Position numbers and translations under genes: made by a program. From TPA_inf: Saccharomyces (Eukaryota): DNA of 64,000 nucleotides. The notes beneath the pieces were generated by a model. It did no database searches. It saw nothing but the letters and a program-made list of their open reading frames with translations, and was not told the origin of the DNA. Positions 60,176-61,138 of the stretch are shown here, piece after piece; the first letter of the stretch is position 1; every line of letters begins with the position of its first letter. Location of the stretch: assembly GCA_000146045.2 (NCBI GenBank), contig BK006938.2, forward strand, positions 576,001 to 640,000. Direction: 5' to 3'.

Positions 60176-60527
60176 ATTTCATATAGGATGTGATGATGTG
60201 TATCACCCGGCACGGCTCTACCCCGCCCTGTGGGGTGTGGAGAAAACGCCGCGCAGAGCCTTGAGTAGGAAGGGGCTGGGTTCTCCCCTTCCTGCCGGGG
60301 TCCGCCCGGCGCCAAGAGTAAGAGAGCGAAGCCGGAGACGTAATATGAAAAAAATTTTGAGGGGAAAGGGCGTCCGCAAGGGCAAGGGCAAGGGGAAGGG
60401 GTGGCGTTTTGTGCTTCAAGGAATTATATTTCGTTGTTTTCCGCACTATGGCGGCATTGTGGCAAGTAACTACTTTACGGAGAAAGACTAGAAAATGGTT
60501 ACAACTGCCACTATTACCGCTTCGCAT
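60117..60527 (-). other. Dubious ORF (136 aa) in the GC-rich island downstream of DNF2 (YDR095C); probably non-coding
   Basis: ATG-initiated ORF whose openness is explained by locally high GC content. Gly/Pro/Arg-rich with no domain. I recall it is annotated as dubious. Confidence 0.2.
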
Positions 60528-61138
60528 TCTCTTGTCTTACAGGTCCCTTGAATTGGCATTTACGTTTACATCCGATCCGGTTTTTCACCAAAGAGAAAGG
60601 AAAGGAAAGGTAAAAATAGCAAACCGAAAAAGAAAACAGTATTTTCTCTCTGTTTAGGATTATTACCACTACTTACTGAAGAGAAGTTTTTAACGTTTAT
60701 CGTTTGTGTTGAGGTAGAAGTACAAACGCGTGTGTGAGTTGTGTATTTGAAATTATTATCCTTCTACGCATATCGGGAAAAAGTTAACGGAAAAAACAAG
60801 AAGAAAACCTCCCCCCTCCTCCTCCCGCCATACAGAAGGCAAAAGAAGTTGGTCTGTTAGGAAGAAAATAGCCAAGTAATAATACGTTTGGCCAGTTGTA
60901 TTTTTTTTTTGTTTCGCTAAGTCTCTTGCTTACAGAAACTCTTTGCCCACCACATATTTCATCGTTTTTCCTTTCTGTTCATCATTAACCTCCATTTCCC
61001 AATTTTTTCCAATTTTCAATTTTTTTCACTATTTGTTTCTTTGTTGGGCGTTTAAAAAGTATTTGCTTCTACAAAGTGAACAACATCGTTGTAATTTTTT
61101 TTTTTTAATTTGAAGAATAGCTACAAAAACAGACTACA

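Follow-up and report, generated by a model that had tools for sequence, protein, structure and literature searches.

A conserved GC-rich island with a G-quadruplex motif upstream of GIS1 in Saccharomyces, a likely proximal promoter

Yeast G-quadruplex (G4) motifs are conserved beyond chance and associated with promoters, 54 nuclear motifs with loops of up to 10 nt having been described (Capra 2010). Among protein-binding elements, the Gsm1 site has been defined as CCGGNGtTa, i.e. overlapping everted CGG triplets (PMC10954478), and in transcript leaders upstream AUG codons (uAUGs; uATGs in DNA) are known as conserved inhibitory elements (PMC3668365). These kinds of element are brought together in the present work, which concerns a GC-rich island between DNF2 and GIS1 in a 64,000-nt stretch of Saccharomyces cerevisiae chromosome IV (contig BK006938.2, positions 576,001 to 640,000; hereafter the window, whose own numbering is used throughout). 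In the Rim15 pathway of starvation and quiescence, GIS1 is a key effector, and the literature that we searched is nearly silent on the control of its own expression. In our assessment, it is likely that the island is the upstream control region of GIS1, that is, its proximal promoter, comprising an upstream activating sequence (UAS) and the edge of the core promoter.

Conservation of the island and the probable GIS1 transcription start

The DNF2 stop and the GIS1 start (GIS1, chrIV 637139-639823; PMC8329514) are separated by a tandem intergenic region of 1018 bp, and GIS1 is the only annotated gene that could have its promoter there. The upstream neighbour, named DNF2 from database matches, is a P4-ATPase open reading frame (ORF) of 1612 aa (55282-60120, + strand). 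An initial annotation, made from the sequence alone, had pointed to a GC-rich patch between the two genes, and this was borne out. Thus, against a window mean of 0.371 (sd 0.048, 200-bp windows), the GC content of the entire 64 kb peaks here, at 0.635 in 60206-60405 (200 bp) and at 0.71 at 60214 (100 bp), and the island is the sole region of the window with a GC content of at least 0.58 in 150- and 200-bp windows. The span 60190-60480 has an overall GC content of 56.4%, the true core being at about 60200-60425.

Syntenic DNF2-GIS1 intergenic regions were retrieved via the GIS1 and DNF2 orthologues and aligned for six lineages besides S. cerevisiae, namely two S. paradoxus-like contigs (L006 and L007, with Gis1 90% and 88% identical), S. 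mikatae (L002), S. kudriavzevii (L003), S. arboricola (L005) and L012 (Dnf2 86% identical), which from its divergence would belong to the S. uvarum/eubayanus clade. In this seven-way alignment, the intergenic region as a whole has 43% invariant positions, and the island has 128 of 226 (57%). The most conserved 50-nt window of the intergenic region, 60374-60423, is 92% invariant and covers G-tracts together with the 22-mer that follows them, and a block of about 70 nt reaches 88-92% invariance. The GC content of the island is 59-65% in every species versus 32-37% in the remaining intergenic DNA. In or next to the linker of the G-tract array, S. mikatae has an indel of -2 nt, S. kudriavzevii one of +4 nt and S. 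arboricola one of +5 nt, and several more indels are found elsewhere. Conservation of the G-tracts, on which the initial annotation had let its proposal depend, was found in seven of seven lineages, while the ORFs of the region are not kept.

These ORFs, the dubious YDR094W and YDR095C, had been suspected of being artefacts of GC content. The suspicion agrees with the loss of their frames in the relatives; of the two, only YDR095C covers the island. Its 136-aa frame exists in S. cerevisiae only, being disrupted by indels that are not multiples of three, and the other species have other ORFs in other frames and strands. Both were rejected as protein genes, since the frame is not preserved and no orthologous ORF exists in the other six lineages. 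As such indels destroy YDR095C in the other species, the region is under constraint as non-coding DNA, and the dubious ORFs are artefacts of its composition. Together, the seven-lineage conservation and the ORF loss support the proposal of a non-coding regulatory element upstream of GIS1. In a genome-wide screen, the ydr095c deletion was miltefosine-resistant, like dnf2 (PMC8496327). This deletion also takes out the DNF2 stop codon, the terminator and the whole GIS1 promoter island, so that its phenotypes are to be read as effects on the neighbours, not as loss of a gene.

In addition, the DNA downstream of the island bears on where GIS1 transcription begins. On the + strand, the 590 nt that precede the GIS1 start codon are free of ATG in all seven lineages, against about 10 per species expected from composition, and CAT occurs 7-12 times there; indeed, no other of the 64 trinucleotides is as depleted upstream of GIS1. 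The nearest uATG is found at -644, -629, -929, -628, -597, -742 and -693 in the seven lineages. When the last 650 nt were shuffled, the nearest uATG was on average 59 nt away, and a distance of at least 644 nt was reached in 0/5000 shuffles. None of the other long ORFs of the window, 20 in all with GIS1, has a uATG-free leader as long as that of GIS1. In L008, an eighth lineage (85.5% identical to L012 here), ATG is likewise absent from the entire 584 nt that the contig offers. A uATG at -385 in L010 was disregarded as non-homologous and probably a chimeric contig end; this Logan assembly (Gis1 82% identical) ends about 414 nt upstream of GIS1 at a (GT)n repeat, where it is no longer homologous.

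Because uAUGs are inhibitory and ATG is avoided over about 600 nt, functional GIS1 mRNAs would be expected to start some 600-640 nt upstream, which would place the transcription start site (TSS) near 60500 and give a leader of about 600-640 nt. Such a start would lie 75-120 nt downstream of a TATA-like element, with the island directly on its 5' side, and on this reading the island is a proximal promoter or UAS. The initial annotation had rightly located the island upstream of GIS1, the G4 motif being 738-759 nt 5' of the GIS1 ATG at 61139. Its suggestion of a distal enhancer, however, is probably wrong, given that the uATG-free zone of 597-929 nt in 7/7 species puts the TSS beside the island. 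Our literature search for a GIS1 TSS, 5' untranslated region (UTR), long undecoded transcript isoform (LUTI), internal ribosome entry site (IRES) or promoter returned nothing usable.

Taken as a whole, the proposed layout would run from 5' to 3' as follows. The DNF2 terminator (60121-60195) would come first, followed by an Abf1-type general regulatory factor (GRF) site (60202-60214) that would keep the region nucleosome-free and could block read-through from DNF2. Then would come dense GC-rich sites for nutrient and stress zinc-finger factors, including inverted SYGGGG sites and CCGG/CCGGNG sites for Rds2/Gsm1, and, within the same site array, the tandem (C/G)AAGGG repeat with its three conserved AGGGG (STRE-type; STRE, stress response element) cores. 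The invariant 22-mer (60402-60423) and the TATA-like element (60426) would follow, and a start near 60500 would give the GIS1 mRNA about 600 nt of leader free of uAUGs. In such a layout, the GC-richness would be the sum of GC-rich binding motifs, and the G4 motif a by-product of tandem G-rich sites, at most a helper. We infer the site-by-site protein binding, the position of the TSS and the identity of GIS1 as the regulated gene. The features are collected in Table 1.

Table 1. Features of the DNF2-GIS1 region in window coordinates
Feature	Position	Strand	Remarks
ORF matching YDR094W	59840-60175	+	111 aa; mostly within DNF2 3' end
Dubious ORF YDR095C	60117-60527	-	136 aa; only ORF spanning the island
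DNF2 stop codon	60118-60120	+	
DNF2 3' UTR/putative terminator region, AT-rich (TATGTATA, GATATGATATAG)	60121-60195	+	Between DNF2 stop and island
GC-rich island, whole putative cis-regulatory module	60200-60425	.	59-65% GC in 7/7 species
Abf1-type consensus RTCRYN5ACG, ATCACCCGGCACG	60202-60214	+	Putative site, 5' island edge
Palindrome CTCTACCCCGC-N3-G(C/T)GGGGT...	60216-60240	.	Two inverted SYGGGG (Mig/C2H2-type) cores
STRE core AGGGG	60271-60275	+	Kept in 5/7 species
STRE core CCCCT	60285-60289	-	Kept in 2/7 species
CCGGGG...CCCGGCGCCAAGAG	60295-60318	.	Two CCGG (overlapping everted CGG); invariant 14-mer 60305-60318 including CCGGCG
GAGCGAAGCCGGAG, with CCGGAG as Gsm1 core match	60322-60337	+	Kept in 6/7 species
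A-run/T-run TGAAAAAAATTTTGAG (RRPE-like)	60346-60361	+	Abuts first G-tract
G-tract array TGAGGGGAAAGGGC-(variable linker)-AAGGGCAAGGGCAAGGGGAAGGGG	60358-60401	+	Six G-tracts; AGGGG at 60360, 60391, 60397
Invariant 22-mer TGGCGTTTTGTGCTTCAAGGAA	60402-60423	+	Directly 3' of G4; longest invariant run of intergenic region
TATA-like TATATTTC	60426-60433	+	Weak match; every species retains (T/A)ATAT
Putative GIS1 transcript leader, uATG-free	60499-61138	+	Conserved blocks 60539-60550, 60762-60777, 61041-61049
C-rich tract CCTCCCCCCTCCTCCTCCCGCC in putative leader	60801-60836	-	G-rich on - strand; G4Hunter -1.92
GIS1 coding sequence	61139-63823	+	894 aa; JmjN, JmjC, C2H2; name from database matches; proposed target gene

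G-tracts, STRE cores and rival readings of the island

The canonical G4 motif GGGCAAGGGCAAGGGGAAGGGG occupies 60380-60401 with loops of 3, 3 and 2 nt, exactly as first annotated, and belongs to a six-tract array spanning 60361-60401. Neither strand of the window has another G3+N1-7 motif, and the G4Hunter scores of this one, 2.08 in a 25-nt window and 2.18 across the motif itself, exceed the customary threshold of 1.5. All seven lineages have six or seven G-tracts (the seventh in S. arboricola), a canonical short-loop G4 and a G4Hunter score of at least 2.08. Such a motif is rare for the genome, as the initial annotation had claimed. Still, when the island is dinucleotide-shuffled, 6% of the shuffles contain a short-loop G4, and the motif is therefore not very surprising given the local G-richness.

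The five STRE cores of the initial annotation were found where it had placed them, within 140 bp (AGGGG at 60271, 60360, 60391 and 60397; CCCCT at 60285). This density compares with 0.89 per kb across the window, and dinucleotide shuffles of the island have 1.5 cores on average and at least five in 0.7% of cases (P = 0.007). As for their conservation, the cores at 60360 and 60391 (both 7/7 species) and 60397 (6/7) stand out, whereas those at 60271 and 60285 are weakly kept; the core at 60391 is lost in one S. cerevisiae strain. After the linker, the array reads (C/G)AAGGG four times, so that the AGGGG cores are embedded in a tandem repeat. The only other site of the window with at least four STRE cores per 140 bp is 17370-17476, which is C-rich (G4Hunter -1.68) and sits 420-520 nt upstream of a GT20/trehalose-phosphatase gene (896 aa, 17893-20583) that we take to be TPS2, a classic STRE-regulated gene. 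This cluster serves as an internal positive control for the appearance of an STRE promoter.

Candidate readers of AGGGG are Msn2/4 and Gis1/Rph1; Jang and colleagues are said to have reported in 1999 that Gis1 and Rph1 also recognise AGGGG-type sites. Autoregulation of GIS1 through these sites is thus as possible as control by Msn2/4. Our literature search found no report of Msn2/4, Gis1/Rph1 or Abf1 occupancy at the island, and none of an induction of GIS1 that depends on Msn2/4.

Is the array selected as a set of protein sites or as a structure? The latter possibility, which is compatible with the promoter model, would have the six-tract array fold in the non-template strand as a structural promoter element, through nucleosome exclusion, factor recruitment or stimulation of transcription, or act as a replication-related or Pif1-dependent site, and we regard it as unlikely. 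Consistent with it, besides the short-loop motif and G4Hunter score common to all lineages, the three substitutions seen in the array (CAA to CAG and GGGG to GGGA in L012, CAA to CAT in L016) all leave at least three Gs per tract; however, the chance probability of three non-disruptive changes out of three is about 0.25, which makes them uninformative. Likewise, the RNA minimum free energy goes from -16.5 to -30.8 kcal/mol once the G-quadruplex option is turned on, but this is an energy-model prediction, and folding is predicted only. The general association of conserved yeast G4 motifs with promoters (Capra 2010) speaks in the same direction, as does the reported increase of yeast reporter activity by a G4-prone sequence placed upstream of a minimal promoter (PMC10730334). 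On the other hand, four tracts suffice for a G4, yet six are kept in every species, and the loops (CAA, CAA and AA) and the tract-free 22-mer flank are as invariant as the Gs themselves, although structure alone needs neither. Further, the likeness in a Nakaseomyces RPH1 promoter described below comes without a short-loop G4, and the 6% of shuffles that yield such a motif weaken the case from its presence. Given that conservation extends to the loops and the flank as well as to each of the six G-tracts, we favour sequence-specific reading, probably by AGGGG-type C2H2 factors, over G4 structure alone, with G4 formation as a possible secondary feature.

One S. cerevisiae metagenome contig, L016, bears directly on this distinction. 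Its CAA to CAT change in the third G4 loop kills the AGGGG at 60391 and spares the G4, and it also has one extra A in the A-run at about 60347. The variant is a natural allele that separates STRE function from G4 function.

The G4 motif has been catalogued before (Dataset S1 of Capra 2010, chr04 636353-636394 W, sacCer1) and is missing from the list of conserved G4s in that study, though present in its full catalogue. The seven-way alignment, by contrast, shows that the motif is conserved in Saccharomyces. The discrepancy is likely due to gaps in the draft assemblies of that time, as assembly gaps such as those of L008 and L009 would explain why the G4 was not scored as conserved. These two independent Logan short-read contigs (Gis1 82% identical) break off some 580 nt 5' of GIS1, immediately 3' of the expected island, which is unassembled in both. 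A text search of the literature for the G4 sequence gave human primer matches only.

A second alternative, also raised by the initial annotation, is an independent non-coding transcript, either an upstream RNA running into the GIS1 promoter (as SRG1-like interference or a LUTI) or an antisense RNA running into DNF2. We consider this quite improbable. The long uninterrupted conservation, the TATA-like element just 3' of the conserved block and the large distance to the GIS1 ATG would all suit such a transcript, and the conserved CACAAAA in the 22-mer, on its reverse strand, could drive a meiosis-specific upstream start, CACAAAA being a core of the Ndt80/middle sporulation element (MSE) type. 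However, an Rfam scan of 59800-61300 (E up to 10) gave sub-threshold noise only, the best hit having 22 bits versus a gathering score of 41, so that no family threshold was reached or approached. The conserved block and the palindrome fold no better than shuffled sequences, with z-scores of -1.0 and -1.4 for the + strand and of +1.9 and 0.0 for the - strand, and the RNAalifold covariation term was unfavourable (+1.45), with covariation confined to one palindrome. A structured non-coding RNA gene was rejected on these grounds. In addition, about 600 nt without ATG in all species fits a translated mRNA leader, not an interfering RNA, and our literature search found no transcript reported from the island.

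Third, the six G-tracts and the 22-mer, about 70 nt in all, might act as a structure-dependent switch, in which G4 folding of the non-template strand beside the GIS1 core promoter, set by a helicase or a small ligand, gates GIS1 transcription; in a variant, the uAUG-free leader of about 600 nt would support cap-independent translation of Gis1 in glucose starvation. Jointly, these proposals appear very unlikely to us. G-quadruplexes bind heme. In a specific form of the switch, the promoter G4 could couple GIS1 transcription to the heme or respiratory state, and the activity of Gis1 is itself heme-regulated (PMC5758875).

Finally, neutral GC-richness, for instance from GC-biased gene conversion at a promoter recombination hotspot with the motifs arising by chance, would account for the 50-65% GC of even the variable island columns in every species, for a C-rich 23-nt insertion in S. 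arboricola and for the link of G4 motifs with double-strand break (DSB) sites (Capra 2010), but can practically be dismissed in view of the genus-wide 57% invariance and the 88-92% of the ~70-nt block, which indicate purifying selection on the exact sequence, the site-specific pattern of fixed bases and free spacer in the Abf1-type element, and the published factor enrichment at the YDR095C locus.

Other elements of the island and its surroundings

Published occupancy data provide candidates for the CCGG-type sites. YDR095C is listed, as a dubious ORF, among selected targets of chromatin immunoprecipitation on microarrays (ChIP-chip) in ethanol, with log2 enrichments of 4.4 for Rds2 (2.2 in gsm1-delta) and 4.5 for Gsm1 (2.1 in rds2-delta), compared with 4.1 and 4.4 at FBP1 (Table 1 of PMC10954478). 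The data of that study were smoothed at a standard deviation of 100 bp and the YDR095C peak was assigned by gene name (PMC10954478); the peak should therefore lie within the island or a few hundred bp of it. The Gsm1 core CCGGNG occurs at 60306 (7/7) and 60332 (6/7), with the downstream tTa unmatched at both, and the two cores fall within invariant blocks; by eye, no other conserved CCGGNG was found in the intergenic region, the formal motif scan having covered 60190-60450. Of the two CCGG motifs of 60295-60318, the one at 60306 is conserved in 7/7 species, and the one at 60295 occurs in all species with a shifted alignment position. The enrichment at YDR095C and the conserved CCGGNG cores make Rds2 and Gsm1 candidate readers of the island. 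Regulation of GIS1 mRNA by Rds2, Gsm1, Ert1 or Cat8 is undocumented in the literature searched. Yrr1 ChIP-seq peaks have been reported upstream of GIS1 (PMC3937518).

Two conserved elements had been overlooked by the initial annotation, namely the Abf1 consensus, RTCRYN5ACG, at the 5' edge of the island and the invariant 22-mer 3' of the G4. The Abf1 consensus is matched at the orthologous position in 7/7 species. Its eight specified bases (ATCAC and ACG) are invariant in all of them, while four of the five spacer bases vary (CCGGC, CCAGT, GCCCT, GCGGC and GCCGG among species). The window holds 13 matches versus 6.9 expected, so that a lone match is weak evidence; the pattern of invariance, however, points to a protein site.

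The adjacent palindrome keeps its CCCCGC and GYGGGG cores in 6/7 species each, and in the form CTCTACCCCGC-N3-GCGGGGTAGAG its 11-bp arms are perfect in both S. paradoxus-like contigs. Between these two there is a double, symmetry-preserving change (C-G to A-T). In S. kudriavzevii the outer arms have other bases and 10/11 positions pair, and S. arboricola and L012 have a degraded form. The palindrome could represent a pair of inverted C2H2 sites, a hairpin or cruciform, or the result of quasipalindrome correction by template switching.

Directly upstream of the G-tracts, the initial annotation had recognised a string resembling the ribosomal RNA processing element (RRPE) at about 60342. The string exists, at 60346-60361, but exact AAAAWTTTT is kept in 4/7 species only, with an A/T tract in all. 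An RRPE, or Stb3 site, was rejected on this count and also because GIS1 acts in starvation regulation and does not belong to the ribosome-biogenesis genes; a simpler view of the tract is that it flanks the G-rich sites. At the other end of the array, GGTGGC, a core like that of the proteasome-associated control element (PACE), straddles the boundary of the G4 and the 22-mer at 60400-60405. A metagenome scan for the 22-mer, seeking distant species, retrieved just three S. cerevisiae contigs with 99.4-99.9% identity. The TATA-like TATATTTC that follows may be a core-promoter element. The motif scan found in 60190-60450 no carbon source response element (CSRE), post-diauxic shift element (PDS, TWAGGGAT), Adr1 TTGGRG, Reb1 TTACCCG, Hap1 or CCAAT site, and no polymerase A and C (PAC) element, Yrr1 WCCGYKKWW or canonical TATAWAWR.

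The leader proposed for GIS1 contains the conserved blocks ACAGGTCCCTTG at 60539, TTCTACGCATATCGGG at 60762 and TTGTTGGGC at 61041, as well as A-rich tracts. Its CCTCCCCCCTCCTCCTCCCGCC tract is C-rich in all species, with variable length and sequence. Translational control through this leader in starvation is possible. A replication origin was considered and rejected, as the autonomously replicating sequence consensus (ACS, WTTTAYRTTTW) is matched at 60558-60568 (ATTTACGTTTA) in S. cerevisiae only, the relatives reading ATTTGCGTTTA; the window has three perfect ACS matches versus four expected, and the one at 60558 falls within the putative leader. On the DNF2 side, the AT-rich stretch 60121-60195 is kept in the five to six species for which sequence was fetched, and by position and composition would be the DNF2 terminator. 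Elsewhere in the window, a very AT-rich stretch (21% GC) at 63800-64000, directly after the GIS1 stop codon, faces the convergent MSH6 3' end, as seen in orthologous loci, and possibly holds terminators and/or an origin. The sole tRNA gene of the window is tRNA-Arg(ACG) at 43969-44041 (- strand).

Outside the Saccharomyces GIS1 loci, Nakaseomyces bracarensis has in its RPH1 promoter (L013, 2640-2676) the sequence AAAAAAAAATTTTTTTAGGGGGGAAAAAGAAGGGGAAGGGGAG, i.e. an A/T tract, AGGGG and then AAGGGGAAGGGG, about 330-350 nt upstream of the ATG and followed by TATATTG. This likeness suggests that a control motif of the GIS1/RPH1 family is ancient or has arisen repeatedly. As AAAAAAAAATTTTTTTAGGGGGGAAAAAGAAGGGGAAGGGGAG has only three short-loop G-tracts, the shared feature points to a G-rich motif, not to a G4. 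Two further loci were set aside: P0030, named GIS1 in its source, has RPH1-type synteny (CCA1, ADK2 and RAD3), and in P0049/L011, from a GC-rich yeast, 17 STRE cores are uninformative at a locus GC content of 56%.

Several points weigh against reading the island as the GIS1 promoter with the readers named above. First, the upstream regions of S. cerevisiae RPH1 and of the single Lachancea thermotolerans GIS1/RPH1 orthologue have no island and no G4; the module in its present form is therefore a feature of the Saccharomyces GIS1 lineage. Second, the assignments to Msn2/4, Gis1/Rph1 and Abf1 are made from consensus sequences. Third, the CCGGNG cores of the island come without the tTa bases important for Gsm1 binding in vitro, and ChIP-chip has a resolution of a few hundred bp, so that the Rds2/Gsm1 peak could instead fall on a conserved CGG-N11-CGG at 60773-60789. 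Fourth, near-perfect conservation over about 70 nt exceeds that of typical yeast clusters of transcription factor sites, and the 22-mer has no nameable reader. Finally, the TATA-like element matches its consensus weakly, and the TSS near 60500 is deduced from sequence only.

If the promoter reading is true, GIS1 would be wired directly to the Rds2/Gsm1 carbon-source network and to STRE-type factors, possibly including Gis1 itself. Its mRNA would rank among the yeast transcripts with longer uAUG-free leaders, inviting tests of translational control in starvation. The locus also offers a clean natural test of whether selection on promoter G4 motifs acts on their structure or on an array of G-rich protein sites, since the predictions differ.

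Comparison with known control systems

The HAP4 and FBP1 promoters, targets of Rds2, Gsm1, Ert1 and Cat8, resemble the island in three respects. Both show Rds2/Gsm1 enrichment, that assigned to YDR095C being about as high as at FBP1 and below HAP4; both have CGG/CCGG sites several hundred bp upstream of the ATG (at -855 to -822 in HAP4); and GIS1 likewise encodes a transcription factor that is itself nutrient-responsive. In contrast to them, the island has neither a CSRE consensus nor the Gsm1 flanking bases defined at FBP1, and adds a G-tract array and an Abf1-type site. With Msn2/4 STRE clusters such as 17370-17476, the island shares several cores in about 140 bp upstream of a stress or starvation gene, three of them conserved across the genus; it differs in that its cores sit in a tandem (C/G)AAGGG repeat able to form a G4, with invariant flanks.

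Like the conserved G4s of Capra 2010, the island motif has more than four tracts, longer tracts, short loops and a promoter location, whereas the conservation of its loops and flank is not predicted by the structural model of that study. Compared with Abf1, Reb1 and Rap1 GRF sites, the RTCRYN5ACG element lies similarly, about 80 nt past the DNF2 stop and at the 5' edge of the next promoter, and has its specified bases fixed and its spacer free; unlike them, this putative site would be some 300 nt upstream of the TSS, beyond the typical GRF distance. The kind of element found upstream of GIS1 is thus ordinary, and what sets it apart is an unusually high degree of conservation.

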